A stretch of DNA of 64,000 bases from a bacterium (GTDB taxonomy: Bacteria; Patescibacteriota; Minisyncoccia; Phycocordibacterales; Phycocordibacteraceae): NCBI GenBank assembly GCA_023269085.1, contig JAHFML010000001.1, positions 11,966 to 75,965 of the forward strand, read 5' to 3'. The position numbers were made by a program, and so were the translations under genes. Shown in pieces: positions 9,905 to 63,898 of the stretch. How positions within the stretch are numbered: position 1 is the stretch's first letter; each line of letters opens with the position of its first letter. The notes beneath the pieces are model-generated. The model did not search any database, was not told where the DNA came from, and was given only the letters and a program-made list of their open reading frames with translations.

Positions 9905-9914
9905 CCTTGGCAAC

Positions 9915-9937
9915 GGGTGGACACCTAGTGTCCACCC
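9915..9937. repeat. REP-like palindrome gggtggacac-cta-gtgtccaccc, copy 1
   Basis: 10-bp stem with a 3-nt loop. Core 14-mer gacacctagtgtcc is shared by six sites in the window. Confidence 0.85.
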
Positions 9938-9940
9938 GAG

Positions 9941-9959
9941 TTGGACATCGGATGTCCAA
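9941..9959. repeat. Second palindrome ttggacatc-g-gatgtccaa adjacent to REP copy 1
   Basis: 9-bp arms. Shares ggacatcg/gatgtcc with the holB-internal element. Confidence 0.6.
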
Positions 9960-19810: not shown

Positions 19811-20159
19811 GAAAAGACTCTGGCATAGAGAACGGCCGCACCCGTATCGCCAACACGCCCTGCTTCTGCTCATCTTCGCGTGAATAGTATTGGTACATGG
19901 CCGAATACTCTTCTCTGCTCGCGCGTCCATACTGCTCGGGCGGGAATGCCGCATAGAGTTCTTGGAAGGTTGCAAATTGCAGGAGCTCCGATACTTCTGT
20001 CTCAATCTTTTGCTCTGGATCAGTCGCGAGTGAGAATTCTATCTCGTCGCCCACCTTCAGGAGCTGGCGCTTCTCGTCGTTGAGCCGAGCTTCAATCGTC
20101 TTACTCCCCTCTCGCATCTTCTCAAACTGATCGGGCTGTAATTTCATTTGGTGCTTCAT
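19803..20159 (-). CDS. ASCH (PUA-like) domain protein
   Basis: KTIEARLNDEKR...VGDEIEF pattern typical of ASCH. 118 aa. Confidence 0.55.
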   Translation of the reverse strand: MKHQMKLQPDQFEKMREGSKTIEARLNDEKRQLLKVGDEIEFSLATDPEQKIETEVSELLQFATFQELYAAFPPEQYGRASREEYSAMYQYYSREDEQKQGVLAIRVRPFSMPESFHV

Positions 20160-20222
20160 GTTGCGACTATTCTATATCAAAACCTGATCCCCGCCTCACC
20201 AACATAGTGGACGGGGACAAGA

Positions 20223-20789: not shown

Positions 20790-20791
20790 GA

Positions 20792-23698: not shown

Positions 23699-23704
23699 AT
23701 TCGT

Positions 23705-24595: not shown

Positions 24596-25809
24596 ACTTT
24601 TACTCTTTGCTTTCCACTCAACAAATCCTGCATCAGACCTTTTTTCAGTCCTGTGAGTTTTTCCTTCAACTCCTGATTGATCGTCATTTTATCGTCAACC
24701 GATGAAAGCACTTCGGAGATTTTCTTAATCTCATCAATGTTTGATGGCTTCGGAATTGGAATGGAGAACAGCCTATCCTTGTTGAGTTTTGGTTGAGCCA
24801 TGCCAGTTAGAAAAGGCTCGAGATTGATCATATTCAGATAGTCTTGTATATACTTCTGAAGAAATCGATCTTCAAACCTTTGAAGGTGTGCATGATTATT
24901 TACCCAATATTTTCCAATAGCAGTAAAAGCAATCGGGTAATTCCTATCTTTTAGATTCGCGCCATCTTCTGAAATCAAGAGCAACTCTTCATCAAATATA
25001 TAGTCGCCAACATAATCCACAATTCCTGTTGCCCCATAATAAGGATAAGATCCTGATTCACGCTTTGATTTGGTAATAGGAATTCGCTTGTTATCTAGAT
25101 TAGATGAAATATCATTTAGGTTCACAATTTCCCAATCTCTTGGAATCTCACCGATCTCAGTTTTCTTATATTTTGTATGGCCAATGCCTTTGGTAAAAAG
25201 TTGCTGTGTCAGTCCGTGCTTGAGCTTTTTGGTCATAGCAATAATCTCGTCAGTTTTCTGAATTTCTTCATCGACAGAGGTGAGAATCTCAGCAATCTTC
25301 TTTTGTTCCTGCTTGGACTCTGGGAAGAGTATGCTTACTCCCAGAAAATCGTGCTTGGATAGATTAAAACGTGTACTACCTTTTGCATGCGCAGCAATTT
25401 CTTTCCTGAAGACAGACCCTCTGAAAAGGTAGCCTCCGAAAGTTGGATCGAGCAGGTCCTTCTCGGGACGGAATATGAAACAGAAACTGTTCAAATACAA
25501 TTCCACTGGGTCCGAGACCACAGCGGAAGACATTCCGACCTCCTCCGGAGTTTCAGAGCTGGTCGTAAAAATATAGTCCCCATACCGTATCTGATTTTGT
25601 CTCTCTCCATCTTTTATCTCCACGAGGTTAGTAAAATCTTTGTCAAGATGAGGATTACGAAAGACATTCATGTATGGAATGAATGGTCTTCCACTACCAA
25701 AATCTTTCTTAGATTTCCCAGTAAGACCTCCTAAGGTATTACCTAGATCCTCAAGCTTTACTCGTTTCCACTGTGGAGGAACGTTGCGTTGTGAAAGTTT
25801 ACTACTCAT
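24592..25809 (-). CDS. hsdS: Type I R-M specificity subunit (HsdS)
   Basis: Two target-recognition domains separated by conserved helical spacers. Start taken at MSSKLSQRN. Confidence 0.8.
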   Translation of the reverse strand: MSSKLSQRNVPPQWKRVKLEDLGNTLGGLTGKSKKDFGSGRPFIPYMNVFRNPHLDKDFTNLVEIKDGERQNQIRYGDYIFTTSSETPEEVGMSSAVVSDPVELYLNSFCFIFRPEKDLLDPTFGGYLFRGSVFRKEIAAHAKGSTRFNLSKHDFLGVSILFPESKQEQKKIAEILTSVDEEIQKTDEIIAMTKKLKHGLTQQLFTKGIGHTKYKKTEIGEIPRDWEIVNLNDISSNLDNKRIPITKSKRESGSYPYYGATGIVDYVGDYIFDEELLLISEDGANLKDRNYPIAFTAIGKYWVNNHAHLQRFEDRFLQKYIQDYLNMINLEPFLTGMAQPKLNKDRLFSIPIPKPSNIDEIKKISEVLSSVDDKMTINQELKEKLTGLKKGLMQDLLSGKQRVKV

Positions 25810-27616: not shown

Positions 27617-27623
27617 AGACGCA

Positions 27624-29447
27624 TCAATAATTCAATTCGTTAAGAAAGCCCTCGACCTTTTTATCTATTTCCGCTCGTTCTTTCTCCAGCGCCACGAGCT
27701 CCTTACGCACCGCAGACACATCGATCTCTTCCTCCTTGTCGCCATTCTCGATATAGCGACGAACATTGAGATTGAATTCGTTCTCTTCGATTTCTTTGAG
27801 ATCTATTACGCGAGCATAGTTCTCGACATCAGCGTAGTTGTCGTAGGCGCGGATAATCTTCTGAATGTCTTGCACGCGAAGCGAGTTCTGATTCTTCCCT
27901 TCGGAGAAGTCCTTTTCGGCATCAATGACAAGCACCTTGTCCTTGCGATTCTCTGGTTTGTTCTTGTTGAAAATGAGAATGGCCGCTGGGATGCTGGTGC
28001 CGTAGAAGAGTTTGGACGGGAGTGCGATTACCGCTTCAAGAAGGTCGTTCTTGAGCAGTTGCTCGCGGATACGCCCCTCTGCGCCACCACGGAAGAGGAC
28101 ACCATGCGGGAGCACAATGCCCGCGCGACCATTTGAATTCATCGACTTGATGATGTGGAGGACAAAAGCATAGTCGGCGTTCTTGTCCGGTGGCATATCA
28201 TAGCCATCGACGCGACCGTATTTGTCGAATTTGAAGAGTTCGTATTCCCAATCCTTGATTGAGTAGGGTGGGTTCGCAACCACAATATCAAAAGTCTTGA
28301 GCGAACCGTTTGGATTGAGGAATTGCGGATTCACGAGTGTATCGCCGCGCTGTATGTCAGCACTGTCGAGTCCGTGCAGGAACATGTTGATCTTGGCAAT
28401 GGCGTAGGTCCCGATGTTGAGCTCCTGACCATAGAGATAAAGAGTGCGGGCAACTGACTCACCCTCTTTCTCTTTCAAGTGATGAAAGGCCTCGAGAAGG
28501 AAACCGCCCGATCCGACCGTCGGGTCATAGATATGGTCCTTCTTGTGCGGTTTAAGAATCTGAATGATCACACCTTCTACTTCGCGTGGGGTATAAAATT
28601 CTCCGCCTTTCTTGCCTGCGTCAGCCGCGAATTGCTTAATGAGATATTCATAGGCATCGCCGAGCAGATCGGAATTGATATAGGTATCACCGAAGTTGTA
28701 CTGCGAGAAATGATTGAGAAGACGCTGAAGCGTCTCATTCGGGAAGCGATCCTTATTAGCAAAATCGAGATCGTCAAAAATCTTATCAAGCTTCGGGCTA
28801 TTGGCATTCGCAAGCTTCTCGAAGACCTCGTTGAGCTTCACGCCGATGTTTTCTGCGCGTTCCTCGATAACTGACCAACGACACTCCTTGGGGACCTGGA
28901 AGCGATGATTATAATCGGCGCGGGCGATCGTTTCATCCTTGAATTCATCCATTACCCGCGCGTACTCCTCGTCCCACACGTCGCTGATGCGCTTATAGAA
29001 AAGAAGTCCGAAGATGTATTTCTTGTAATCCGAGCTGTCGATCTTACCACGAAGGATGTCGGCGCTCTTCCAGAGAAATTGTTCGAGCTGTGGCAGAGTA
29101 AGTTTGCTCCCCATCTTGTCGACGATCGTCTGAATGTCCTGTGGGCGATACTTACGATCGCCGCGCTTACCAGCACGAAGAGGCACCAAGATCCCATCTT
29201 TCTCCCAATTGCGAAGAGTATCGGGGTGGATATTAAAAATTTCGGCTACCTGGCCGATAGAGAGCAAATCTGGCATGTCTTTAAGCTTTGCTTGAATATC
29301 TTTTCGCATATCTATACGCCTCATCCTATCGCCGCACAAATATAATGTCAAGCGTTCATAGGTCTTCATAGGTCTGCATCCTAACTTACGGCTTAAAATA
29401 AGGATAATCTGGTTACCAACAGCTCGGATTTGTGCTCTGGACTTCAA
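27624..29447 (-). CDS. hsdM: Type I R-M DNA methyltransferase subunit (HsdM) with an in-frame N-terminal MerR/excisionase-like HTH extension
   Basis: N6-adenine MTase motifs (NPPY, FYTP) and an HsdM N-terminal domain (LEQFLWKSADILRG). Upstream of it, in the same frame, about 70 aa with LSIGQVAEIFNIHPDTLRNWEKDGIL. Candidate starts are 29447, 29324 and 29309. Confidence 0.85.
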   Translation of the reverse strand: MKSRAQIRAVGNQIILILSRKLGCRPMKTYERLTLYLCGDRMRRIDMRKDIQAKLKDMPDLLSIGQVAEIFNIHPDTLRNWEKDGILVPLRAGKRGDRKYRPQDIQTIVDKMGSKLTLPQLEQFLWKSADILRGKIDSSDYKKYIFGLLFYKRISDVWDEEYARVMDEFKDETIARADYNHRFQVPKECRWSVIEERAENIGVKLNEVFEKLANANSPKLDKIFDDLDFANKDRFPNETLQRLLNHFSQYNFGDTYINSDLLGDAYEYLIKQFAADAGKKGGEFYTPREVEGVIIQILKPHKKDHIYDPTVGSGGFLLEAFHHLKEKEGESVARTLYLYGQELNIGTYAIAKINMFLHGLDSADIQRGDTLVNPQFLNPNGSLKTFDIVVANPPYSIKDWEYELFKFDKYGRVDGYDMPPDKNADYAFVLHIIKSMNSNGRAGIVLPHGVLFRGGAEGRIREQLLKNDLLEAVIALPSKLFYGTSIPAAILIFNKNKPENRKDKVLVIDAEKDFSEGKNQNSLRVQDIQKIIRAYDNYADVENYARVIDLKEIEENEFNLNVRRYIENGDKEEEIDVSAVRKELVALEKERAEIDKKVEGFLNELNY

Positions 29448-31452: not shown

Positions 31453-32032
31453 CACGTTGCCTCTTGTTACCAAGAGAGTGGACTATATCATCACCCGTAT
31501 CTGTTCTCACAGATCGAGGGTGCGAGGCGCTTCGTCCTTCGATTATTCTCAGGACTACTCCCTTGCGGGATAGTCTCTACACCTTCCTCTCGACATGCGC
31601 CGAGAGACTTGGCTCGGGATTGCCCACAGCATTTCCTCTGTTAGGGGTTCCCCGAATTCACCTCGTGTTCGACCTGAATCTCTTCAGGAAGCTGCGTAAT
31701 GCCTGCGTGCACTTCACGGTGACAATTCGCACAAACAAGAGCGCATTTATCGATTTCTTCTTTGATTTTTTCCCATGATCTCGTGAGCCCTTTTGTCGAG
31801 AGACCGAAGTCTTTCTTCGTAGGATCTTTATGGTGAAAATCAAGCGCTCCTGAATAACGATCGTAACCGCAAATAATGCACTTCCCGCCTTTGTACTCAC
31901 GCGCCATTTCTCGAAGTTTTTTACGACGTTCAGTAACAGCTTTGCGCAAATACTCTGCACGGTCGGCATAAGTCCTTTTTTCTTTTGGCATACTCAGATA
32001 AGTATACCATTGGGTTTCGGACTTGAACCACA
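31453..32032 (-). other. Intervening sequence inside the tRNA anticodon loop, a candidate ORF-containing group I intron (boundaries +/-2 nt)
   Basis: The 5' exon ends in U and the insert ends in G. The insert contains two GNRA-tetraloop hairpins (cucuug-GUAA-caagag at 31461-31476 and uccc-GCAA-ggga at 31561-31572, both read on the minus strand). The same-strand HNH ORF lies within it. Classic P1/P7 elements were not confidently identified by eye. Confidence 0.45.
31641..31991 (-). CDS. Small HNH endonuclease (116 aa) encoded within the tRNA intervening sequence
   Basis: CIICG...LDFHHKDP...CANCH: a HNH/His-Me finger with two CxxC pairs. Same orientation as the tRNA. Confidence 0.7.
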   Translation of the reverse strand: MPKEKRTYADRAEYLRKAVTERRKKLREMAREYKGGKCIICGYDRYSGALDFHHKDPTKKDFGLSTKGLTRSWEKIKEEIDKCALVCANCHREVHAGITQLPEEIQVEHEVNSGNP

Positions 32033-44477: not shown

Positions 44478-45283
44478 TTATCGTTGCTGACATTGGCGGG
44501 ACCCACCTGCGCATCGCGGCGAGCGACACGCCTGACACGTTCGAAGAGCCGGTCGTCGTCGACACGCCGGTCGCCTTCGATGAGGGTGTTGCGGCCTTTG
44601 CCGCAGCCGTACGCACCGCCGCCAAAGATCGCCCCGTTACTGGCGCGGTCGCTGGCATCGCGGGAGTCTTTTCGCGTGATCGTCACATGCTCCTCATCTC
44701 TCCGCACTTGCCCGAATGGTGCGGCCGCGATATTGCAGGCGCCTTCAGCGCGGCTATCAGCGCACCGGTCGAGGTCGAGAACGATGTCGTGCTCGGCGCT
44801 CTTGGCGAAGCGCATCACGGCGCTGGTAGGGGTGCCGCGATTGTCGTCTATGTCGCGGTCGGCACCGGCGTGGGCGGCGCACGCGTCTCTCACGGCGCCG
44901 TTGAGCCTGCGACCTTCGGCTTCGAGATCGGTCACCAGCTCCTCGGCACGGGCGAGGGCGCACCCGAGTGGGAGTCGCTGATCTCGGGCACTGGGATCGA
45001 GAATCGTTATAACGCGCCCGCCGCCGAGATCACCGATCCGGCCGTGTGGGAGCGGTGCGCTGACGATTTCGCCTATGGGCTCTACAACACGCTTCTGCAT
45101 TGGTCGCCCGAGCGTGTCGTCCTCGGTGGGTCGGCCTTCAAAGGCACCGCTGCAATCCCGCTCGAACGCGTCCGCACGACGCTTGGCGCTATCAATCAAT
45201 ACCTGCCCGAGCTGCCCGAGCTCTGTCTTGCCGAGCTCGACTACCCCGGCCTCTACGGCGCCCTCGTCAGGAGCGCCTCCTAA
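44474..45283 (+). CDS. ROK-family glucokinase
   Basis: MIIVADIGGTHLRIA ATP-binding N-terminus. EIGHQ motif. Confidence 0.7.
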   Translation: MIIVADIGGTHLRIAASDTPDTFEEPVVVDTPVAFDEGVAAFAAAVRTAAKDRPVTGAVAGIAGVFSRDRHMLLISPHLPEWCGRDIAGAFSAAISAPVEVENDVVLGALGEAHHGAGRGAAIVVYVAVGTGVGGARVSHGAVEPATFGFEIGHQLLGTGEGAPEWESLISGTGIENRYNAPAAEITDPAVWERCADDFAYGLYNTLLHWSPERVVLGGSAFKGTAAIPLERVRTTLGAINQYLPELPELCLAELDYPGLYGALVRSAS

Positions 45284-45286
45284 GCG

Positions 45287-45311
45287 CGGGTGGACACCTA
45301 GTGTCCACCCG
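45287..45311. repeat. REP-like palindrome, copy 2 (cgggtggacacctagtgtccacccg)
   Basis: Identical core. Lies immediately after the ROK stop and before the terminator hairpin. Confidence 0.85.
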
Positions 45312-45319
45312 TTAGGCAT

Positions 45320-45344
45320 AAAAAAGAGCCACCGAAGTGGCTCT
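45320..45344 (-). terminator. Rho-independent terminator for the minus-strand gene 45369-46010 (agagccac-cgaa-gtggctct, U-run on the minus transcript)
   Basis: Stem-loop flanked by A5 on plus, which is U5 on the minus strand. Confidence 0.6.
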
Positions 45345-45368
45345 TGAAGGCGGCGAGACTTGGTAGCC

Positions 45369-46010
45369 CTAGCTGTCGATACTTTTCTGCGCTTGGGCGA
45401 ACAGGGCGCGTTGTTCAATGGGAAGATCGAGGTCATCCTTTGCCACGCGGAGCGCGGCGTTGAATGCTGCTCGTGCGGTCAGGACATTTCTTGCTGTCCT
45501 GATGACAGCCTCCTCCGATATCGCAATATTCAGACGCTTTTTCAGAAACTCGGCTTCGGCACGCAACACGGCATTGGCGAGACCAACGAGCACCATCTCG
45601 ACGAATGCCACATTGCACAACCAATTTTTGTCGTCTTGGCTGGAATAAAGCACCTCGACCTTCTGGCGGAACTCTTCGAGTTGTCCACTGACAACGGCAA
45701 ATTGATCACTAAACTTCATAGAGCGCAATATCGCGAAGGAAGATATTGCCACTACGACACACCCCATGATTACGAGAAGTATTGGACTTAACTGCTTACA
45801 TTTGGGAGCAATAACCACAGTCAAAACAAAGATATTTAGAAGAAGGAAACCGAAACCAAGGAAATACCAGAATTTCTTTCCTTCTTGCAGAAGATCAAGT
45901 TGTGTAGCCTTCTCCTTCAGCGAACCAACCTCGGGATGCCGGCGTTCGTAGCCGGCGATGAGATCGTCATGGACATGCTCGATGAGAGCACTGATGTCTT
46001 TCGTTTTCAT
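45369..46010 (-). CDS. Hypothetical membrane protein
   Basis: ORF with two TM helices. Confidence 0.4.
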   Translation of the reverse strand: MKTKDISALIEHVHDDLIAGYERRHPEVGSLKEKATQLDLLQEGKKFWYFLGFGFLLLNIFVLTVVIAPKCKQLSPILLVIMGCVVVAISSFAILRSMKFSDQFAVVSGQLEEFRQKVEVLYSSQDDKNWLCNVAFVEMVLVGLANAVLRAEAEFLKKRLNIAISEEAVIRTARNVLTARAAFNAALRVAKDDLDLPIEQRALFAQAQKSIDS

Positions 46011-46173
46011 TTCGAACCCCTTTTCAAGGTGCCTTTGGCGGCCACGGTCTTTCGGACACGCTTGCGAGCTTTCGACCCGCGAGCGTAGGGCCTCTCGGCC
46101 GTCGTGTAGCCCAAAATAGCCCAGGCGACTATTCCGTGCATATTAGAGCACTTACCTACTATTTATGCAAGAG

Positions 46174-46223
46174 CACCCTGCGGGTGGACACCGGGTGGAC
46201 ACCTAGTGTCCACCCGCAGGGTG
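46174..46223. repeat. REP-like element, copy 3: extended 18-bp hairpin caccctgcgggtggacac...gtgtccacccgcagggtg with a duplicated left half-site
   Basis: Seen directly. Lies 8 nt upstream of the transposase-like gene. Confidence 0.85.
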
Positions 46224-46230
46224 TATACTG

Positions 46231-46932
46231 ATGCGTATGGGATATCGAGAATCGGTTACTGACTCCTATGTGCATGTCTATAATCGCGGCGCGAAGAAGC
46301 TTGATATATTTCGTGAACATGCCGACCTCTTTCGTCTTATGTACGGCCTCTACTATTTCAACAACGAAAATCCGATGTCCGCTTCGTGGGTGCGCGATGT
46401 TGAACGCGCAGGAGGCATGCACACTTTCGCATGGCCGGAACATTGGGAACCGCGCGCGCCGCTCGTCTCAATACTCGCATTCACCATCATGCCGAACCAT
46501 TTTCATATCGTCTTGAAGGAGATTGTTGACGGCGGTGTCGGGAAGTTTATGCATCGGGTCAGCATGAGTTATTCAAAATTCATCAACGAAAAATATGCTG
46601 AGAACGGTAGCTTATTCCAGGGCACGTATAAAGCTCGGCGTATTGACGACGAAACAGATCTCCACAATTTATTGGTCTACACGATGATCAAGAACCCTTT
46701 TGAACTATACCCGAGCGGCCTGCGGCACGCGTGCCAGAATTTTGATCAAGCGTACGATCATGCTCTTGCGTATCCTCTCACGAGTCTCGCCGAATACGTA
46801 GAGCATACGAGCCCCGCAATACTTGATCATGGCCTGCTACGCGACATCGGCGAGGACCGGAGTGCTTTCAAAGAATTTGCCCGAGAGAGCATGGCGCATC
46901 ATCTCGATCAGATGAACATATTCGATTTCTAG
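46231..46932 (+). CDS. IS200-like / REP-associated tyrosine transposase (RAYT)-like protein (Y1 HUH family)
   Basis: N-terminal YVHVYNRGAKKLDIF (the YHV.NRG signature of the PF01797-like family). HuH motif MPNHFHIVL. Downstream Tyr candidates. REP copies flank it on both sides. Confidence 0.65.
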   Translation: MRMGYRESVTDSYVHVYNRGAKKLDIFREHADLFRLMYGLYYFNNENPMSASWVRDVERAGGMHTFAWPEHWEPRAPLVSILAFTIMPNHFHIVLKEIVDGGVGKFMHRVSMSYSKFINEKYAENGSLFQGTYKARRIDDETDLHNLLVYTMIKNPFELYPSGLRHACQNFDQAYDHALAYPLTSLAEYVEHTSPAILDHGLLRDIGEDRSAFKEFARESMAHHLDQMNIFDF

Positions 46933-46947
46933 CCGTAGCGAACTCGG

Positions 46948-46973
46948 ACGGGTGGACACCTAGTGTCCACCCG
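46948..46973. repeat. REP-like palindrome, copy 4, between the convergent transposase and helicase genes
   Basis: acgggtggacacctagtgtccacccgt. Confidence 0.85.
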
Positions 46974-46978
46974 TCTGG

Positions 46979-49171: not shown

Positions 49172-49354
49172 CTAATTGGTTTCGCGACACTCTTGCACTA
49201 CTCTACGCTGTTCTGCATTCGCTTCACGCAATACCTGACGAATGACCTTTGCTTTGTGACCAGAAGATTTGCTAAAGAAATCCGAAAAATCGCTAGAGGT
49301 TTTCTTCCCTCCGCTCCGGAAAGCACCGAAAAATCCTTTTATTTCATTGGTCAT
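49172..49354 (-). CDS. Small basic protein (60 aa), translationally coupled to the upstream zeta-toxin-like gene
   Basis: ATGA overlap with 49351-50055. Confidence 0.3.
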   Translation of the reverse strand: MTNEIKGFFGAFRSGGKKTSSDFSDFFSKSSGHKAKVIRQVLREANAEQRRVVQECRETN

Positions 49355-50055
49355 ACAAGTATCTCAGTGAGTACATCTACAGAGTAGCGGTCATCTGCCA
49401 GACGGTCAAGCTCATTTGCAGGAACATTCAATCGCACTTCTCCCTCGTTCGCCGCATAATTTTTGATGAGAATGTTCAGTTCAATATTCTTACCAAACAT
49501 ATCCTTTACGATTCGGACATTGGCACGCGACTCAAAGAATGCATTGATGAAGACTTCTTTGGAGATTCGACGCGCTTCGCGTACCTCACGTGCTTTGGTA
49601 AACTCCCAAGCACGTATCGGATCTTGATATATAAACCAAATCTCGATCTTTCGTCCGTGTTTTAACGACCTTTCAATATTCTCAGAAGCTCCCGCATAGA
49701 TAAACGTGCTATCCATAATGCAGTTTATCTCTTTATCGAGAGCATAATCGTACAAGAAGTTAACCCCCTTGTTTGCCGCCTTTTGGAAGAGGTGCGCGTT
49801 ACCCCCAAGATAGCTGGGGCATAAACTTCGTATTTCATCCGCGTCTATGCGTACGGGCGTATCTCTAAATCTTCTGACCAGACCCTTCGACACTTCCGTC
49901 TTACCTGCTCCGGGAGAACCCGCCATAAAGAGCGAGACCGGATTGGTGACGGCATGGCAGAGAGAGGGCGGACAAAACGTGTCGAGAACAAGCTTTTTAT
50001 TATGTTTGATGAATTCGAGTGCCTCATCCTCAATACGCTTTTCTTCTTCAGTCAT
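49351..50055 (-). CDS. Zeta-toxin-family P-loop kinase-like protein
   Basis: Walker A MAGSPGAGKT plus the downstream D..R of zeta/PezT-like kinases. Confidence 0.6.
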   Translation of the reverse strand: MTEEEKRIEDEALEFIKHNKKLVLDTFCPPSLCHAVTNPVSLFMAGSPGAGKTEVSKGLVRRFRDTPVRIDADEIRSLCPSYLGGNAHLFQKAANKGVNFLYDYALDKEINCIMDSTFIYAGASENIERSLKHGRKIEIWFIYQDPIRAWEFTKAREVREARRISKEVFINAFFESRANVRIVKDMFGKNIELNILIKNYAANEGEVRLNVPANELDRLADDRYSVDVLTEILV

Positions 50056-50087
50056 GTCTCCATTCTACCTCGCGCCGGCCGCAGTTT

Positions 50088-51311
50088 CTATGAAAATCCC
50101 TCGTTATACTCCTTCAAGCGTTCGGCAGGATCGCAGAATTCGACACCCACAGGATCGAACTCCTTCGGATCAAATTCTTCTCCCTCCTCGAGCATGAGCC
50201 ACTCGCGCATATCGGCATATTCTCCATGCGTGGGATTCTTAAGAATTCTTTGCAAGTCGTCATATCCGCCAACGCCGCCGCAATCTTCTGGCGGGCAGGC
50301 ATTCTTACCGCCGGTGCATTGCGGGTAGGTTGATCCATTTTCGCGTGAGGCCTCGCCTTCAAAGAGCACGGTGTGATCCCATCCGTCGCCAAAGTCGTAC
50401 TCATAGACGCACTGTTGCATGCGTGATCCGAACCAATTCGCGACGCATTCTTTTCGTTCATCAAAAGTCTCACCCGGTTCTCTCTCTGCTTCTGCATTTG
50501 GGAACTCGATATACAAAGTCTCGCCCCGCGCACCATTTCGCTTCGATTTCGTCTGACTACGCGTGTCAATGCGAAAGGCGTGCAAATGGCTGTCCGTCCA
50601 GCCCATCGCATCTTGAATAGCACAGTGTAGATCAAAAAAGGTGTATGCCGCCGGCACGACTATTCGCCGCCACACCTTGGGCGTGCTGTCATTAAGCGTT
50701 ACCTTGAAGGTCATCACGCGAGAACCATCGGCGCGATGCTTCACTTGTCGTTCAACATTCTGCATAACCTCTTCCGTCTTGAACGCATCCATGAGCTTCT
50801 CGTGATCACCGCCCTCTCCCTTGCGGATAAGATCGCAGACCGCGCAATTATCGCACCCTTCAAACTCGGCTTTGATAGAAACATACGGATTCTCAATGAG
50901 CCAGTGGTGTAGATACTTCCCCGCCTCGTCATCAACATATTGCTCCCACGCGTCGATCCACCCATCGCCATGCTCCTCGAGAAATTCTTCCATTGCTCGC
51001 CATCCGCCCGTAACGAGGATAGGGCGTGCGCGCGACGCCTCGCTTGGCGCCATAACTTCTAGGATAGAATCGATGAAATCACGAGCCATGCTACCACGCT
51101 CCGCATCAGTAAACCGTTCAACCGAAAGATAGCGCTTCGTCGCTCCGATCTCCTTGACCCAGCATTCGAGACTTTTTGCTGAGGAGATCTCGATGAGCGC
51201 TCCTGTCTCGGTATCCAGATACACCCGTGGATATTCGCCGTCAAAAAGCATCGCGTCTGCCAATCGTTCTACATCGACAGGCACGCCGTTCGGCAATAGG
51301 TATTCGTACAT
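50088..51311 (-). CDS. pRiA4b ORF-3-like family protein (C-terminal half) with an unknown N-terminal domain
   Basis: VWRRIVVPAAYTFFDLHCAIQDAMGWTDSHLHAF...YDFGDGWDH signature. Confidence 0.55.
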   Translation of the reverse strand: MYEYLLPNGVPVDVERLADAMLFDGEYPRVYLDTETGALIEISSAKSLECWVKEIGATKRYLSVERFTDAERGSMARDFIDSILEVMAPSEASRARPILVTGGWRAMEEFLEEHGDGWIDAWEQYVDDEAGKYLHHWLIENPYVSIKAEFEGCDNCAVCDLIRKGEGGDHEKLMDAFKTEEVMQNVERQVKHRADGSRVMTFKVTLNDSTPKVWRRIVVPAAYTFFDLHCAIQDAMGWTDSHLHAFRIDTRSQTKSKRNGARGETLYIEFPNAEAEREPGETFDERKECVANWFGSRMQQCVYEYDFGDGWDHTVLFEGEASRENGSTYPQCTGGKNACPPEDCGGVGGYDDLQRILKNPTHGEYADMREWLMLEEGEEFDPKEFDPVGVEFCDPAERLKEYNEGFS

Positions 51312-51395
51312 ACCCTGTCAGAATATGCTTTCCCTACCTTTCTCGCAACTGCGCCATGCGGTGTCTTTCTGTGTTTGTTTTGATATACTGGAGCT

Positions 51396-52433
51396 ATGGA
51401 CAAAAAATCACTCATTTCGGGAATAGAGAGGCAACGCGGCTCGCAGGTTATCACCTATATAACGAGCGACCGCCCGGGGCCAGTCGGTGCGCGCGTCGCG
51501 CCAGACATCATCCCGCTTTTCAGCAAGCAACTGCGCGAGATCGCTCCCGCCGGCAAGGTGCCCAAGATTGATCTCTTCATCTACAGCGCGGGTGGCGACA
51601 CGATGGTCCCCTGGCGGCTCGTCTCGATGATCCGTGAACACTGCGATCAGTTCTCGGTACTCGTCCCCTACAAGGCGCACAGCGCGGCGACGATGATCGC
51701 GCTCGGCGCGGACGAGATAGTGATGAGCGACCTCTCGGAGATCTCGCCCATCGACCCTTCGACCGCGAATGTCTTCAACCCGCCCGAGCCCGGCAATCCG
51801 CAAGGGCGCATCCCCATCTCGGTCGAGGATGTCATCGCCTACTTCGACCTCGCCAAGAATAAGTTCGGCATCAAGAGCGACGAAGATCTGACCAAGATCT
51901 TTGTGCAATTCATCGAGGCGAGCCCCGAGGTGCACCCGCTCGCGCTCGGCAACGTCAACCGCACGCACAATCTCATCCGCCTTATCGCCAAGCGCCTCTT
52001 GAAGAGTCACAACAAGCCGCTTCGCGACGATGAGATCGAGAAGGTCGTCGAATACTTCACCGAGAAGCTCTACAGCCACCAATACTTCATCGGCCGAAAG
52101 GAGGCGCGCGAGGAGCTCGGCGTGAAGTCGGTCATCGATGCTCCCGCTGAGCTCGCTACAGCAATGAACGATCTTTATGAAGTCTATCGCGAAGAGATGG
52201 GCCTCGGCGCGACCGTCTGGAACCCCGAGTTCGAGCTCGGCGCGAACACGAGCCAGAAGCAGGTAACCTATCCAATAGCGATTATTGAGAGCACTACACT
52301 CGCGAACCGCTTCGAGACGACAATCGAATTCAAGCGCCAGCAGGCGATGGTCCAACAACAGACCCCCGCCGGTATGATGCAAGTCCCGCAAGAGCAGGTC
52401 GGCTTCCGCGTCCTCGAGCAGGGGTGGAGGTAA
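51396..52433 (+). CDS. SDH-family ClpP-fold serine protease (S49/SppA-like, soluble)
   Basis: DLFIYSAGGDTMV and HSAATMIALGADE motifs. Confidence 0.6.
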   Translation: MDKKSLISGIERQRGSQVITYITSDRPGPVGARVAPDIIPLFSKQLREIAPAGKVPKIDLFIYSAGGDTMVPWRLVSMIREHCDQFSVLVPYKAHSAATMIALGADEIVMSDLSEISPIDPSTANVFNPPEPGNPQGRIPISVEDVIAYFDLAKNKFGIKSDEDLTKIFVQFIEASPEVHPLALGNVNRTHNLIRLIAKRLLKSHNKPLRDDEIEKVVEYFTEKLYSHQYFIGRKEAREELGVKSVIDAPAELATAMNDLYEVYREEMGLGATVWNPEFELGANTSQKQVTYPIAIIESTTLANRFETTIEFKRQQAMVQQQTPAGMMQVPQEQVGFRVLEQGWR

Positions 52434-52436
52434 TTT

Positions 52437-53168
52437 TTGTTTGTTCACGACATGCTGGTTTTTATCGACGAAACGGGAGATCATGATTTGGTAAAGATCG
52501 ACCCGCAATATCCGCTCTTTGGTCTCGGCGCGCTTTTGATAGATGAAAAAGAATACGCCAGACTCGACGCGAAAATTCGAGCGCTGAAAGAAGAATATTT
52601 CGAGAGCGCCGACTTCATACTCCATTCATCCGAACTTAAGCGCCCTACAGACAAGCGGAGTGATCCACGCAACGCGGTGATGCTCGACGCGACAATCAGA
52701 CGACGATTTTATGAAGCGTTCGATGCGCAAATTATTTCCGCCTTCAATTTCAAGCTTGTCGCCTGCTTCATCCACAAGCCGACAATGGTTGGCACCTACA
52801 AATTCCCCGCCGATCCATATTATTTCTCATTTGAGAATCTGCTCAATCGTATCTTGCGTCATGGCGGAGAGAAAAATCTAATCCGTGCGGAGAAGAGAGG
52901 CGACCGGCTCGACACGGAGCTCATCGCAGAATATGAGCGGCTCTTGAAGGTCGGCCTGCGTTTCTATCCTGCAGACACACTCGCAAAGCGCACGACACTG
53001 GAGCTTGTCGCGAAAAAGGATTGTGTGAATGGTTTGCAGATCATAGACCTCATACTCGCCTCTCTCGCGCGGGACTTTCTCGGGAAGACTGCGAAAATGG
53101 TAGGGAACGATCCGTCCCCCACCTTGCTCAAAAAGAAATACGCCTGCCCGTCGACCGTCTTCCCCTAG
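52437..53168 (+). CDS. DUF3800-family protein
   Basis: N-terminal FIDETGD (DES-like) and QIID (QxxD) motifs. 4-nt gap from the protease gene. Confidence 0.55.
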   Translation: MFVHDMLVFIDETGDHDLVKIDPQYPLFGLGALLIDEKEYARLDAKIRALKEEYFESADFILHSSELKRPTDKRSDPRNAVMLDATIRRRFYEAFDAQIISAFNFKLVACFIHKPTMVGTYKFPADPYYFSFENLLNRILRHGGEKNLIRAEKRGDRLDTELIAEYERLLKVGLRFYPADTLAKRTTLELVAKKDCVNGLQIIDLILASLARDFLGKTAKMVGNDPSPTLLKKKYACPSTVFP

Positions 53169-53399
53169 TTCTATCCCTTGTATGAAAAGGGGCAAGGGAG
53201 CCCCCCGCATACGCAGTGAGCTCCCTCTGCCTTATTCCCAATATAGCACATCTTCTGCGGTCAAGCGAATGTTGTGGAAACCACCGCCCGTCCTCGCATC
53301 TCCAATTTCAACTTGCGTGCCTACTGTGCAGGAGTAGAATGAGCGCATGAGCACCCTACACGCGTTCGCTTTATATATTTTTGAGCAAGATAAAAAATT

Positions 53400-53777
53400 A
53401 TGAGACAGGAATTTGTGATAGTTTGTGAGTCGGCCATTGTCGCAAAAGATACCGGGAATCTTTACATCCTCGGTATTTTCGAAAATGTTTCCGTACCGGG
53501 CGTTCCAGTTCTGCAACCAAAATTAGTTGTAGTTACTCGCTTTAGTGAAGCAACAGGAGAACATAAACATGAGATAGTTATACGTCACGACTCTGGCATA
53601 GAAACAGCCCGTTTGCAGGGAAAAATAAATTTTGGCACAAACAATAAAGCCCAATATATCGGGACTTTTATTGGTCTTACCTTCCCTAAGATAGGGATGT
53701 ACTATATCGAAATCTATGCTGATGGCATACTACAGCCGATGAAAGGAGAGTTTAATGTCAATATCGTCCATCAATAA
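53400..53777 (+). CDS. Hypothetical protein (125 aa)
   Basis: ORF in an AT-rich stretch. Confidence 0.3.
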   Translation: MRQEFVIVCESAIVAKDTGNLYILGIFENVSVPGVPVLQPKLVVVTRFSEATGEHKHEIVIRHDSGIETARLQGKINFGTNNKAQYIGTFIGLTFPKIGMYYIEIYADGILQPMKGEFNVNIVHQ

Positions 53778-54084
53778 AATGCCTGTAACAAATACCAGTC
53801 AAAATGAAGACACTGTAGAGCCGCAGTCAAAATTAGGGTCAGAAACTGGAACAAGCGGTACAGAAGGGGACAGTAAAGACCTAACACGAGACCTCGCTGA
53901 AGTGTTTGCCAAGATTCCACTACCGAGACTGTTCCTATTATTAATGTTTCTTTCCTATATGGTAGTTGCTTTTAGTAAGGGCCAACAAGGTATTGGGTAT
54001 CGAGACTTTTTTCTCTTGATTGGTTTTACACTAATTGCTTCAATATTTCATTTTTTCCTTAAGCGGTGGCTCGGGAGCAGATAA
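53755..54084 (+). CDS. Hypothetical small membrane protein
   Basis: ORF with a C-terminal TM pair. Confidence 0.25.
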   Translation: MSISSINKMPVTNTSQNEDTVEPQSKLGSETGTSGTEGDSKDLTRDLAEVFAKIPLPRLFLLLMFLSYMVVAFSKGQQGIGYRDFFLLIGFTLIASIFHFFLKRWLGSR

Positions 54085-54183
54085 TATCTTGTTGTTATCT
54101 GATCAATCTCCCGCATAACCCGCCCCGTCTCGGCGAGAGCGACGATGATTTGCTGATAATACTCGAGGTCAGCAACAACTTGC

Positions 54184-54594
54184 TTATGAATGGCGGATTC
54201 CGAAATGCTGTAAGAACTCAAGAGTCGTTGTCGAATAGCCACTTGGCACTATGGAAACCGTAAAACCAGACATCTCTAACGCATTCGCCACAGATACGGT
54301 AGCTGTTTGATTTTCTATCAACAAAGAGTCCATTAGGCGGTAGCGAAAGAAATGTCCGTCTTCACCCTGATTCACGTATAGAGGATCAACGGTAAACGAT
54401 GATAGCGGCTTGAAAATATCCTGAAGGATCATCTGTCCGGTGTTTGACTGTTGTATAGCTCGCGCTTCCACATACACTTGCCCGCCTGACATAAATGCCT
54501 CCGCCAAAGTTATTGAGGAAGAAGAATCAGAAACGGAAAACGTCCCGCTTCCAAAGGAACCTTCTGCACCGAGAATTACAACAGACGTTGTCAT
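54184..54594 (-). CDS. Hypothetical protein (136 aa)
   Basis: ORF. Overlaps a 64-aa minus-strand ORF (54048-54242) whose 3' end is partially duplicated at 54638-54692. Confidence 0.3.
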   Translation of the reverse strand: MTTSVVILGAEGSFGSGTFSVSDSSSSITLAEAFMSGGQVYVEARAIQQSNTGQMILQDIFKPLSSFTVDPLYVNQGEDGHFFRYRLMDSLLIENQTATVSVANALEMSGFTVSIVPSGYSTTTLEFLQHFGIRHS

Positions 54595-54699
54595 ATGAAC
54601 AGTATACCATAACGAGATTCTACTGCACGATTTTATTTATTTCCCGCATCACCCGCCCCGTCTCGGCGAGGGCGATGATTATTTTGTCGAATATTTTAC

Positions 54700-54927
54700 T
54701 TATCGTGGCGTAAGCCCAATCTCATATTCACCACCAGCACTATCCCAAGCACTTGAAATCTGATAAATACCAATAATGTGTTCAGTATTTATTTCATATT
54801 GGTAAGTCTTTTTGAAGAATTTCTTAAATGCGTCCACTTGATTTTCTTCATTTGAAATAACTATGACATCTGCGTCATTGCTATTTTCCATTTCATTGAA
54901 ATATTGAGCCAGATAAAGTTCGTGCAT
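54700..54927 (-). CDS. Hypothetical small protein (75 aa)
   Basis: ORF downstream of the Mrr-like gene. Confidence 0.25.
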   Translation of the reverse strand: MHELYLAQYFNEMENSNDADVIVISNEENQVDAFKKFFKKTYQYEINTEHIIGIYQISSAWDSAGGEYEIGLTPR

Positions 54928-54936
54928 ATTAATTCA

Positions 54937-55953
54937 TTATAGAACATATCGTTCAACAGGAAAACTTGTTTCTCCGATAATATGATGGAGTTCATTTATA
55001 CCAATTAGATTAATCGGCGTCTTGTATTCGGAACCTGCCTCTCGAATAGCGCTAGCGGTAAAGTGACTCGTTGAAATAATTACTCCTTGCGTATTCAATC
55101 CCATACTCCCTCGCAAATTAGCGACTTCGTTTCTTCCTACGGAATGCTTCCATCTCTTGACTTGGAACGAGTACTGCAGATTTATTGAGACAGGATTTCT
55201 AAGTGTAGCGTTTACATCAACCCCATCATCTCCACTCTTTTTTGTAACGCGCACATCAGAAAAACCAACATGACTTATGAGATTACTCACAACCACTTCA
55301 AACCTATATGGATCTACCGTCATAAATTTCAGTTTCATCTTTTCAACATCTCTTAGTCTTTCTACCTCATGTGCGTCTATTGTCTCTGTTTCGGCAGCTT
55401 CTTTTGCTATGGAGGTATCACCTTCAAATGTATTCTCTTTAATCTTATTGAAAATGGGAGTGAACGGGTCTGTAAATTCTCCGATTTTAAGAGACGGGAT
55501 TTCTGATATTATTTTGAATTCAAAAACAAGGACTTTTCGCATAGATCCTTCATGATCAAGCTGATAATCCTCGTAGTGTCTCAACAGGTATAGGAATCCT
55601 ATAAATTTATATTTGTTTGTATCTTCTTTTATAAAACCTAGAATTGGTATTGGCTTGTCTATTTGTTCCAAAAGTCTTTTGTTTACACCGGAAATATGCT
55701 GTTCTCCTTTTAGTCCAGCGCCCGTGTATGTAAGAATATCTTCTTCGATACGATCTGCGTATGGATTTCTGATAGCATCTTTGTCTGCTTCTGTAGAAGT
55801 TATGAGAACAACGAAGTCCAATTCTTTTTGGGAGTTTAATTTTGGCCTTATCCCTCCAAGATTGGCAACGTCAAGCGCGTAATGAATTTGGTCATTTGTA
55901 TAATACTTACCGACTTCAAGTATCGTTGGTGTTACGAGTTGTCTCATATACAA
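54937..55953 (-). CDS. Mrr-like type IV restriction endonuclease (C-terminal Mrr_cat PD-(D/E)xK domain, N-terminal putative modified-DNA-binding domain)
   Basis: C-terminus FEVVVSNLISHVGFSDVRVTKKSGDDGVDV...QVKRW...GVIISTSHFTASA matches the Mrr catalytic domain pattern. Confidence 0.65.
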   Translation of the reverse strand: MYMRQLVTPTILEVGKYYTNDQIHYALDVANLGGIRPKLNSQKELDFVVLITSTEADKDAIRNPYADRIEEDILTYTGAGLKGEQHISGVNKRLLEQIDKPIPILGFIKEDTNKYKFIGFLYLLRHYEDYQLDHEGSMRKVLVFEFKIISEIPSLKIGEFTDPFTPIFNKIKENTFEGDTSIAKEAAETETIDAHEVERLRDVEKMKLKFMTVDPYRFEVVVSNLISHVGFSDVRVTKKSGDDGVDVNATLRNPVSINLQYSFQVKRWKHSVGRNEVANLRGSMGLNTQGVIISTSHFTASAIREAGSEYKTPINLIGINELHHIIGETSFPVERYVL

Positions 55954-56120: not shown

Positions 56121-56142
56121 TGTAGACACCTAGTGTCCTACA
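56121..56142. repeat. REP-like variant, copy 5 (tgtagacacctagtgtcctaca)
   Basis: Core 14-mer identical, flanks diverged. Lies 3' of the minus-strand gene 56183-56512. Confidence 0.75.
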
Positions 56143-56182
56143 CTTCGGTGGGAACGGGCGCGGGCGCGGAGGAGCTTGAAGA

Positions 56183-56512
56183 CTATGAGGAGCGCGCTGA
56201 TGACAGAGAAGACTTCGCCCATGAGGCGGGCGGCGTCGTCGCGATATACAGGAAGGCGAGCGGCAGAGCCCACACCACGAACTTGAGCCACGACTTGAAG
56301 ATCTCGCGCGGTACGAAAACGAGGATGATGGTGATGGGGAGGGTGTAGAGGGCGAAGAAATATAAAGGATATGTTATTTCTGGAATAATTTGCTCTATTA
56401 TTGTTCGATAACACATATGGTCAATACTTACACACCACTGACTAAAATTACCGAACCCGACAGCTATCAAAGCAACTACAGCAGGCACAAATTGCATCAT
56501 TCTTGATTTCAT
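56183..56512 (-). CDS. Hypothetical membrane protein
   Basis: ORF with 3 TM segments. Confidence 0.35.
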   Translation of the reverse strand: MKSRMMQFVPAVVALIAVGFGNFSQWCVSIDHMCYRTIIEQIIPEITYPLYFFALYTLPITIILVFVPREIFKSWLKFVVWALPLAFLYIATTPPASWAKSSLSSARSS

Positions 56513-56587
56513 AATTTAGAAAAAGTTTATGAGAGCGGCCCAGAGCCTATGCAGGTTAGTATAAACCCCGCTCGCCAAATTCTAATT

Positions 56588-56609
56588 TGTAGACACCTAG
56601 TGTCCTATA
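56588..56609. repeat. REP-like variant, copy 6 (tgtagacacctagtgtcctata)
   Basis: Core 14-mer identical. Lies 3' of the minus-strand gene 56597-57025. Confidence 0.75.
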
Positions 56610-57687: not shown

Positions 57688-59380
57688 GATGACCACCGAT
57701 GCATTGAAAAGCGCGCTGACCAAAGTGATGAAGGGCGAGGTGAGCGATGATGAAGGCGCGCGACGCAGAGCGTCGCGCGACACCTCCCTCTTCACCCGCA
57801 CACCTTCGCTCGTCGTGTACCCCAAGAACGCCGCAGACGTGAGTGCCGCGGTGAAAGAGGTAGCCCGCGCCCGCTCCGCGGGCGCGGAAGTCTCTCTCAC
57901 CGCTCGCGCCGCGGGCACCGACATGTCGGGCGGCCCGCTCACGACCAGCGTCGTGATCTCCTTCACCGAACACATGAATCATATGGGCACTGTTGAACCT
58001 GGGACACGGATGTCCAAGTTGAGTGCCGGCTATGCCGTGTGCGAGCCCGGCGTCCTCTATCGCGACTTCGAGAAAGCGACCCTCGCGAAGAATCTCATCC
58101 TCCCCTCTTACCCCGCATCACGCGAGCTCGCGGCGATGGGCGGCATCGTCGGCAACGACTCGGGCGGCGAACGCACCCTCGCCTACGGCAAGACCGCCCG
58201 CTATGTCGAGGAGCTCGAGGTCGTCCTCTCGGACGGCTCACTCGCGACTTTCAAATCGCTCACGCCAGAAGAGGTCGAGGATAAAAAGAAATTGCAAACG
58301 CTCGAGGGCACTATCTATCGCGATATGGACGCGCTTCTCTCTAAGAACGCCGCGCTCATCGAGGCGCATCGCCCGAAGGTGTCGAAGAATGCCGCCGGCT
58401 ACGCGTTGTGGGACATCCGCGACGAGCGCACCGGCGCGACCAATCTCGCGAAGCTCATCACCGGCTCGCAGGGGACGCTCGCACTCTGGCACCATGCGAG
58501 GCTCGGCCTCGTCACACCGAAGGAGCATCGTGCGATGCTCGTCATCTTCTTGAACGACCTCGCTATCCTCCCCGAGATAGTTGCGCGGGTCCTCAAAGAA
58601 AATCCCGAATCCTTTGAGAGCTATGACGATCACACCTTCTCGCTCGCGGTGAAGTTCATGCCGCAGATGCTCGCGCAGATGGGCTTCACCAAGGCCGCAC
58701 GGCTCGGGGTGAGCTTCATCCCCGAGGCCTTCATGGTCGCGACCGGCGGCGTGCCGAAGCTCATCCTCATGGCCGAGTTCGCTGAAGCGACAATCGAAGA
58801 AGCGGATCGCCGCGCCACTGCCGCCCGCGCCGCGCTTGCCGATCTCAATCTGCAAACGAAAATCGAGAAGAACGAAAAAGAATCGGAGAAGTACTGGATC
58901 GTCCGTCGCGAGAGCTTCAATCTCTTGCGTAAGAACATGCACGGTCTTCACACCGCGCCCTTCATCGACGACTTCGTGGTCCCGCCCGCGAGCTATCCGG
59001 AGTTCTTGCCGAAGCTCGACGCGCTCCTTGCAAAATATTCGACGCACTTCATCTACACCATCGCGGGTCACATCGGCAACGGCAACTTCCACATCATCCC
59101 GCTCATGGATATCAGCAACCCAGAGAATCGTCAGGTCGTCCTCGACCTCGCGCCCGAAGTCTATCGGCTCGTCATATCGGTTGGTGGTACCACGACCGGC
59201 GAGCACAACGACGGCATTGTCCGCACGCCGTATCTCCCGATGCTCTATGGCAACGAGATGATTGCGCTCTTCGCGCAGACGAAAAATATCTTCGACCCGC
59301 AAAATATTTTCAATCCGGGTAAAAAAGTCGGCGGCACCTTCGACGACATCAAGCGCGACATGATCACCGAGAATACATAA
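57686..59380 (+). CDS. FAD-linked oxidase (GlcD / D-lactate dehydrogenase-like, FAD_binding_4 plus C-terminal domain)
   Basis: 564 aa. FAD-binding N-terminal domain pattern and a C-terminal HNDGIV region. Confidence 0.75.
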   Translation: MMTTDALKSALTKVMKGEVSDDEGARRRASRDTSLFTRTPSLVVYPKNAADVSAAVKEVARARSAGAEVSLTARAAGTDMSGGPLTTSVVISFTEHMNHMGTVEPGTRMSKLSAGYAVCEPGVLYRDFEKATLAKNLILPSYPASRELAAMGGIVGNDSGGERTLAYGKTARYVEELEVVLSDGSLATFKSLTPEEVEDKKKLQTLEGTIYRDMDALLSKNAALIEAHRPKVSKNAAGYALWDIRDERTGATNLAKLITGSQGTLALWHHARLGLVTPKEHRAMLVIFLNDLAILPEIVARVLKENPESFESYDDHTFSLAVKFMPQMLAQMGFTKAARLGVSFIPEAFMVATGGVPKLILMAEFAEATIEEADRRATAARAALADLNLQTKIEKNEKESEKYWIVRRESFNLLRKNMHGLHTAPFIDDFVVPPASYPEFLPKLDALLAKYSTHFIYTIAGHIGNGNFHIIPLMDISNPENRQVVLDLAPEVYRLVISVGGTTTGEHNDGIVRTPYLPMLYGNEMIALFAQTKNIFDPQNIFNPGKKVGGTFDDIKRDMITENT

Positions 59381-63731: not shown

Positions 63732-63774
63732 CAAGGTTCGACCTTTGGCCCAAAATCTTCAAGGTCGAACCTTG
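63732..63774. repeat. Palindromic hairpin element, family B copy 3 (caaggttcgacctt / aaggtcgaaccttg, 15-nt loop)
   Basis: Seen directly. Intergenic, followed by gaat as in copy 2. Confidence 0.8.
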
Positions 63775-63898
63775 AATACCGTTATCCACAGTTGGCTTGC
63801 GTTTCGCGCACATTTCTGGCATATTATAGGTACTCGCAGAGTATCCGAGCTCCGATAGGTGTTCAGTTTCGGCGAGATTAACCGGTTTAGATCTACAC

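Follow-up and report, generated by a model that had tools for sequence, protein, structure and literature searches.

When a transposase-like gene is found between palindromes that recur elsewhere in the same genome, the question arises whether gene and palindromes make up a single system and, if so, of which kind. Such a case is presented by a stretch of 64 kb of contig JAHFML010000001.1 (referred to as the window, i.e., the whole stretch of DNA analysed, whose coordinates are used throughout), which originates from a bacterium of the Paceibacterota, within the Candidate Phyla Radiation (CPR), and carries a gene for a Y1-type HUH protein flanked by hairpins. The original prediction viewed this arrangement as a module uniting a REP-associated tyrosine transposase (RAYT) with its repetitive extragenic palindromes (REPs). 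The present analysis supports that view through three lines of evidence, namely the Y1 fold of the protein, the possession of its own hairpins, and the covariation of palindrome and protein. With a probability of roughly 0.75, the locus corresponds to a REP/RAYT-type system ("REPtron"), where a Y1 HUH enzyme is associated with cognate palindromic repeats, the term RAYT being used here in its operational definition (Nunvar 2010; Bertels & Rainey 2011; Bertels 2017).

The Y1 HUH protein

The open reading frame (ORF) at 46231-46932 on the + strand had been picked out for a YHV.NRG-like N-terminus and an HUH motif within NHFHIVL, and both are present: the N-terminus reads SYVHVYNRG and PNHFHIVL occupies codons 86-93. 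As the homologs start with MGYRE, the true start is likely the ATG at 46237 instead of the one at 46231. A simple scan revealed no sigma-70-like promoter directly upstream of the gene. That the protein would be recognised as a Y1 transposase was borne out by Pfam, where PF01797 (Y1_Tnp) is matched over residues 79-143 with 29 bits against a gathering cut-off of 23. At E-values up to 1, Pfam gave only Y1_Tnp, and no C-terminal helix-turn-helix (HTH) domain, i.e., Bac_DnaA_C, HTH_23 or HTH_28, was found; PADLOC and PHROGs gave no family for the protein. At the level of the family, all 23 aligned members match the NCBIfam RAYT model, each below threshold (best E 3.6e-9), and only three of the 23 match the NCBIfam IS200 model (E 0.025).

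The AF2/AlphaFold model of the protein (pLDDT 88.7, pTM 0.86) exhibits the topology b1-aA-b-b(HUH)-aC-b4-aD of the Y1 fold, with H88-F-H90 on the strand 88-95 and Y148 on the helix 139-155, catalysis itself being predicted; beyond the Y1 core, some 70 residues (161-228) make up a helical C-terminal domain. Compared with solved structures in Foldseek, the model is closest to 4er8_A, i.e., the Escherichia coli RAYT in complex with a REP hairpin (E 5e-6, TM 0.62 on target), followed by the TnpA proteins of ISDra2, IS608 and IS200 (E ~5e-4 to 2e-3). In a profile alignment with E. coli RayT, H88/H90 correspond to H59/H61, FQ to W94-Q95 and Y148 to the catalytic tyrosine Y115. H88, H90 and Y148 are invariant among the aligned homologs, down to 28-45% identity. 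The tyrosine motif of the family reads Y-x3-K-N-[PTSVA] and not Y-x3-N-P as in the class-2 signature (Quentin 2018), Y-x3-N being seen only in the 28%-identical paralog (L025p2). Likewise, the motifs LFQG and YTMIKNP of the protein differ from the WQ and YIxNNP of subclass 2.4. Judged by its motifs, the Y1 protein belongs to none of the described subclasses.

Cognate hairpins across the family

As many as 304 homologs were retrieved, with named sources in the Paceibacterota, Kaiserbacteria and the Patescibacteria group, from which 26 related Paceibacterota loci in one-per-species genomes (numbered with the prefix L), plus two diverged paralogs, were compared. With a hairpin defined by at least nine pairs and at most one mismatch, 23 of 27 genes carry hairpins on both flanks, the other four having weaker or imperfect ones, and the density of hairpins reaches 8.3 per kb in the flanks of the Y1 genes against 0.77 per kb elsewhere, i.e., an 11-fold difference. 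In most loci, the nearest upstream hairpin ends 10-28 nt before the start codon, a position from which it probably also gates the expression of the gene; the downstream hairpin starts between -13 and +56 nt relative to the Y1 stop codon.

The sequence of these palindromes follows the phylogeny of the protein. In the clade of the window, the palindrome is GACAC-N-GTGTC with outer stems tracking the subclades, and in distant clades it is GAGGTT-N-AACCTC, GAAGTC-N-GACTTC or GGAAGAC-N-GTCTTCC, every class being monophyletic on the Y1 protein tree. The second paralogs encountered in L015 and L025 (28-35% identity) each come with a different palindrome of their own. Thus, the palindromes co-evolve with the protein, and such cognate pairing is the defining pattern of RAYT/REP systems. 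Further REP-like traits are REPIN-like inverted doublets flanking L022 and L024, and, in three relatives with GAGGTT-class palindromes, a cognate palindrome lying in frame inside the Y1 gene (L026 9950, L028 4158, L029 1773), where it encodes (K/E)(Q/L)RLNL in a variable loop before the HUH strand; the gene of the window has none. In the clade of the window, the palindromes bear a double foot, 5' GT[AG]G...C[TC]AC 3', in the form of GTGGACAC...GTGTCCAC and GTAGACAC...GTGTCTAC.

Palindromes dispersed in the window

The core 14-mer GACACCTAGTGTCC occurs at 9920, 45293, 46198, 46955, 56125 and 56592, in all six cases on the + strand (Table 1). All six copies of the original prediction are therefore present, three of its coordinates being off by one. 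Only 0.18 copies were expected in 64 kb and none of 100 shuffles reached six; for the degenerate core GACAY-N1-6-RTGTC, nine copies stand against 1.07 expected. Moreover, an identical 25-nt palindrome, CGGGTGGACAC-CTA-GTGTCCACCCG, starts at 9914, 45287, 46192 and 46949, and all ten 16-mers counted four times, the highest 16-mer count of the window, come from this repeat, which is as such not confined to one locus. That the recurrence would stem from chance or base composition has nothing in its favour except the short length of the core and can practically be discarded, considering the shuffles, the identity of the 25-mer at four sites and the recurrence of the pattern in 26 independent genomes.

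Table 1. Coordinates of the Y1 gene, its palindromes and the associated insertion in the window.
Feature	Position	Strand	Remarks
REP1, solo identical 25-mer	9914..9938		Intergenic, upstream of def
REP1b, variant palindrome TTGGACATCGGATGTCCAA adjoining REP1	9941..9959		GACAT-CSG-ATGTC variant core also in L013 and L023
REP-bounded insertion, ~1705 nt	45274..46978		REP2, terminator hairpin, hyp213, REP3, Y1, REP4; absent from three related genomes
REP2, identical 25-mer	45287..45311		3 nt past ROK stop codon; left end of insertion
hyp213, passenger gene within insertion	45369..46010	-	Called as gene; no Pfam, PADLOC or PHROG family
REP3, extended palindrome upstream of Y1	46174..46223		Core 46192-46216; ends 14 nt before ATG 46237; dG -26.5 kcal/mol, z -7.6
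Y1 HUH (RAYT-like) transposase gene	46237..46932	+	231 aa; Pfam, Foldseek, homologs; alternative ATG 46231
HUH motif H88-F89-H90	46498..46506	+	Invariant in 23 homologs; aligns with H59-M60-H61 of E. coli RayT
Y148 codon, putative catalytic tyrosine	46678..46680	+	Y-x3-K-N-P, helix aD; invariant; aligns with RayT Y115; predicted helix 139-155
REP4, downstream palindrome GACGGGTGGACAC-CTA-GTGTCCACCCGTC	46947..46975		dG -17 kcal/mol; right end of insertion
REP5, GTAG-headed variant TGTAGACAC-CTA-GTGTCCTACA with bulged C	56121..56142		dG -4.4 kcal/mol
REP6, GTAG-headed variant with bulged C	56588..56609		Loop = TAG stop of minus-strand ORF ending 56597

The gene was said to be bracketed by hairpins, one of them extended, and REP3 and REP4 do flank it, the left arm of REP3 (11 nt) being duplicated at 46181-46191 so that CGGGTGGACAC stands twice. 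REP4 lies 14 nt after the Y1 stop codon and 3 nt before the stop codon of a convergent PIF1 gene; it scored as terminator-like, its tail being weakly T-rich. As single-stranded DNA, the four copies of the GGGTG type fold strongly (-13.6 to -26.5 kcal/mol, z ~ -6 to -8), whereas the copies at 56.1 and 56.6 kb, with flanks TTGTAGACAC...GTGTCCTAYA, fold weakly (-3 to -4.4 kcal/mol). A position directly after a stop codon had been attributed to almost all copies; this holds for five of the six, the exception being REP3, which lies between divergent genes. The six cores share the same polarity, with the CTA loop on the + strand, and the GC skew is negative over the whole window, which fits a strand-specific, replication-linked process. 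Solo copies exist elsewhere in the genome, mostly at 3' ends of genes, and with some one copy per 10 kb their dispersal in the window is modest. The loci compared contain 22 solo cores outside the gene flanks, where 270 kb would yield 4.6 by expectation; the window accounts for seven.

Since most solo copies sit at 3' ends of genes, REP4 resembles a terminator, and the upstream palindrome of almost every locus lies close to the start codon, at a constant spacing, the palindromes might be taken for operators on double-stranded DNA, or for terminators or mRNA stabilisers of the host, the Y1-like protein then being a non-catalytic DNA-binding regulator. Such an interpretation is very unlikely. 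The HUH histidines and the tyrosine of helix aD are invariant down to 28-45% identity, as for an active nuclease, no T-tract follows the copies except for the weakly T-rich stretch after REP4, and identical 25-mers at unrelated genes, in-frame copies within the Y1 gene of three relatives, and a REP-bounded insertion would all be left unexplained.

Several side observations pertain to these repeats. Partial tandem duplication of the left arm was seen in three genomes, namely in the window (CGGGTGGACAC), in the downstream copy of L022 (TTGTAGAC) and in the upstream copy of L023 (GGACAC), each motif standing twice; this duplication may have been left by strands wrongly joined at the stem. A variant CCTGGGACACGGATGTCCAAGTTGAGTG is located at 57999-58020 inside a FAD-oxidase gene (57689-59380) and has the 13-mer GGATGTCCAAGTT in common with REP1b; it is translated as PGTRMSK, within a loop 5-7 residues longer than in homologs of the Protein Data Bank (PDB) and only two residues longer than in the L042 ortholog. 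Given the latter, an intragenic REP at 58002 was downgraded to a possibility. REP4 forms the exact end of two independent Logan contigs of this organism (L001 10717-10745, L002 3171-3199) and many Y1 homologs sit on contigs of only about 1 kb, which suggests that the REP4-type repeat breaks short-read assemblies, a point of practical concern. No Rfam family corresponds to the repeats, and the exact 25-mer was not found in a collection with one genome per species. In metagenomes of the Joint Genome Institute (JGI), a 19-mer from the repeat retrieved seven singletons, borne by unrelated contigs of 35-66% GC that lack a Y1 gene, a result uninformative on abundance.

A REP-bounded insertion and its empty sites

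Through relatives of the adjacent ROK protein, three genomes were located (L041, L042 and L043), one of which has 84% ROK identity and comes from the same sample, where the ROK gene is directly followed by the convergent PIF1 helicase gene with overlapping 3' ends, and where neither hyp213, nor a Y1 gene, nor a REP core occurs at the junction. As ROK abuts PIF1 in these three related genomes, the window carries an insertion of about 1.7 kb, placed where these two convergent genes otherwise overlap at their 3' ends. Deleting 45274-46978 restores collinearity with L041 (...GTCAGGAG|TATTTC...). REP2 begins 13 nt inside the left edge and REP4 ends 5-6 nt inside the right edge, the inserted DNA supplying a new stop codon to ROK. 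The passenger gene hyp213 has a GC content of 0.49 against 0.63-0.66 in its neighbours.

Being borne by a REP-bounded insertion, the Y1 gene behaves partly like an element of the IS200/IS605 type (IS608, ISDra2; subclass 1.1), and the whole unit keeps the mobility of an insertion sequence (IS). Besides the Y1 HUH fold, the two share same-strand subterminal hairpins just inside both ends, insertion without obvious target duplication, a uniform orientation on one replichore, and presence or absence of the unit as a whole, as seen from filled and empty sites. It could therefore be proposed that the locus is simply an autonomous IS of this type with a passenger gene, the solo hairpins being decayed ends or derivatives similar to miniature inverted-repeat transposable elements (MITEs), a proposal to which the direct orientation of the end copies also lends itself. 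This explanation is considered unlikely. The window contains a single Y1 copy in 64 kb, no locus has the near-identical duplicates expected of a high-copy IS, the paralogs are only 28-35% identical, there is no tnpB, and the solo hairpins are dispersed independently of the gene. Moreover, IS200-type proteins are limited to a core of about 150 aa with Y-x3-Q (subclass 1.1, PMC6006769), whereas the 231-aa protein is 80 aa longer, possesses a C-terminal domain and lacks Y-x3-Q, and the members of its family match the NCBIfam RAYT model rather than the IS200 one.

Elsewhere in the window, REP5 and REP6 bracket, in the same orientation, one small membrane-like ORF on the minus strand (ORF109, 56183-56512), the GC content of which is 0.48 against 0.58-0.62 in its neighbours and for which PADLOC and PHROGs gave no family; it resembles a REP-bounded cassette. 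Between REP4 on its left and REP5/REP6 on its right, an island of defence-like or mobile appearance (49351-55947) with patchy low GC (38% for Mrr) comprises genes for a zeta toxin, PRiA4_ORF3, an SDH-type protease, DUF3800, DUF6941 and an Mrr/SRA nuclease. This island is absent from the relative with 84% ROK identity, where PIF1 and two small genes are directly followed by the FAD oxidase.

On a more speculative note, pairs of REPs could act as portable transposon ends, the Y1 enzyme mobilising any segment between two REPs of the same strand, i.e., the insertion at 45274-46978, the REP5-ORF109-REP6 segment (56121-56609) and perhaps also the defence-like island that separates REP4 from REP5. 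While this extension is regarded as rather doubtful, it would, if true, mean that cassettes are actively shuffled in streamlined CPR genomes by a system standing between IS200/IS605 elements and domesticated RAYTs.

Inheritance of the Y1 gene

Vertical inheritance and exchange both find some echo in the relatives. In at least eight species, the Y1 gene occupies the same slot, SBP-methyltransferase-[Y1]-gyrA, which is absent from the 64-kb window, and Y1 identity correlates with gyrA identity (rho 0.61 overall), a correlation largely driven by one outgroup. This conserved chromosomal slot and this correlation add to the differences from an autonomous IS. In favour of the latter, the Y1 genes are incongruent with the neighbouring SBP genes (rho -0.43) and also with the neighbouring methyltransferase genes, and L013 and L015 are 93% identical in gyrA against only 58% in Y1, a discordance that suggests, at the level of sequence identity, a replacement or transfer of Y1. 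To the same side belongs the GC content of the Y1 gene, which is below that of the surrounding 5 kb on each side in 25 of 27 loci (mean difference about 0.08, maximum 0.20), genes in the gyrA slot included. Low GC was nonetheless rejected as a sign of recent transfer, because the gene is GC-poor in these 25 loci, syntenic ones included. The copy of the window, for its part, is an insertion at another place than this slot. The Y1 gene may descend strictly vertically, or may have been repeatedly replaced in a preferred slot.

Comparison with known REP-associated systems

The REPtron of E. coli, i.e., RayT/TnpA-REP (subclass 2.2; 4ER8, Messing et al. 2012), provides the best structural match. Both proteins have the same Y1 HUH fold, HUH and tyrosine registers that align, and a C-terminal extension beyond the catalytic core; both genes are flanked by their own cognate hairpins, which are also found elsewhere in the genome, and both sets of repeats have a GT[AG]G foot. 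The two proteins nonetheless share only about 10% identity, with 231 aa here against 165 aa, and FQ and Y-x3-K-N-P here where E. coli has WQ and Y-x3-N-P. The repeats of the window are perfect palindromes with a paired GT[AG]G, whereas the E. coli REPs are imperfect hairpins with an unpaired 5' GTAG; they also appear to be far fewer, and stand as direct singlets where E. coli exhibits REPIN or BIME (bacterial interspersed mosaic element) pairs.

Other likenesses are with subclass 2.4 TnpAY1, which corresponds to Bertels group 4 and occurs in Cyanobacteria, Bacteroidetes and others (Quentin et al. 2018, PMC6006769). In common are double-foot REPs (5' GT[AG]G / 3' C[TC]AC), an HUH motif of the form NH[IFV]H, in-frame REPs within the transposase gene (here in L026, L028 and L029) and what appears to be a low gene copy number; in contrast, members of subclass 2.4 have WQ and YIxNNP and a median length of 194 aa, and none is described from the CPR (PMC6006769). 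As for the TIRYT/TIRtron of subclass 2.1 (Di Nocera et al. 2013, PMC3733652; Quentin et al. 2018), the protein is of similar length (median 238 aa), shares NH[YF]H and FQ motifs as well as a C-terminal tail domain, and the repeats flanking TIRYT genes share GGGGWSAS, the half-site GTGGACAC found here being one position off GGGGACAC. Some of these terminal inverted repeats (TIRs) are self-complementary and the repeat families are only moderately abundant, as in the present system. TIRYT genes, however, are described as having TIRs at their flanks where the present gene has two hairpins; the C-terminal tails of TIRYTs match Bac_DnaA_C and HTH_23/28, and their tyrosine motif is Y[IV]xLNP.

Several points weigh against the assignment to the REP/RAYT systems. 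With regard to the protein, it falls short of the NCBIfam RAYT equivalog NF047646 (REP_Tyr_transpos) with 30.5 bits against a cut-off of 80. 4ER8 was not found by sequence, PDB searches with the single sequence and with the family profile giving no transposase. Against RayT, hhalign assigns a very low probability (2.6%), so that the mapping of residues onto RayT rests on motif register and fold match; furthermore, the position of the metal ligand N119 of RayT (Y+4) is taken by an invariant Lys in the family. With regard to the repeats, the original prediction looked for flanking REPs in inverted orientation, and both flanking copies are direct in the window, the family counting about 12 direct against 8 inverted arrangements. 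It likewise looked for REP expansion in related genomes; dispersal beyond the gene is indeed seen in the excess of solo cores, but most related loci have palindromes only beside the gene, so that any high-copy genomic expansion would be hypothetical. Finally, no activity, cleavage site or guide/target rule can be derived.

By analogy with E. coli TnpA-REP and with IS608 and ISDra2, the enzyme of the proposed REP/RAYT system would bind the hairpin that forms where DNA is single-stranded at the replication fork and would cut beside it through a 5'-phosphotyrosine link to Y148, with a metal held by H88/H90. Rejoining of the strands could then copy or move single REPs and, occasionally, whole REP-bounded segments including the gene of the enzyme itself.

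Significance for the Paceibacterota

Work on REP/RAYT systems has dealt almost exclusively with Proteobacteria, Cyanobacteria and Bacteroidetes, and literature searches gave no paper linking RAYT or REP terms with Patescibacteria. The system described here is as such of a known kind, in a phylum for which no prior description was found. With hundreds of family members, the Paceibacterota exhibit persistent repeats where these would not be expected, i.e., in very small, streamlined genomes, and provide a compact system in which the role of RAYTs in their host can be addressed. The filled and empty sites, observed among relatives that occur together in one sample, document to the nucleotide the joint movement of a RAYT-like gene, its repeats and a passenger gene, a case that bears on how REPs and REPtrons are mobilised.

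Other features of the window

The ORF at 6827-7528 on the minus strand (233 aa) was considered as a second Y1 copy and rejected, its translation having no resemblance to the Y1 protein. Two perfect palindromes lie within it, namely GTATCGAAGTCTGACTTCGATAC (6949-6971), which resembles the GAAGTC-class repeats flanking distant Y1 homologs, and AATGTGGGACATCGTAAGTCCCACATT (7121-7147), which resembles CATGTGGGACATACTATGTCCCACATG in L004 (49-75). A second dispersed repeat consists of REPIN-like inverted doublets, AAGGTTCGACCTT-N14/15-AAGGTCGAACCTT, at 5115-5155, 10229-10270 and 63733-63775, one of them oppositely oriented; the copy at 10229 is inside the def gene, in a region variable among deformylases, and the window holds no cognate Y1 gene for this repeat.

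Neither rRNA (Rfam scan) nor tRNA (ARAGORN) genes were detected anywhere in the window, and a full-length group I intron is present at 31460-31749 on the minus strand (Rfam RF00028, 67.5 bits). Lastly, the stretch 20000-28000 stands out by its low GC (41-46% against 55-62% elsewhere) and by large minus-strand ORFs, e.g., 20792-23698, 25802-27616 and 27624-29447, and may have been acquired horizontally.

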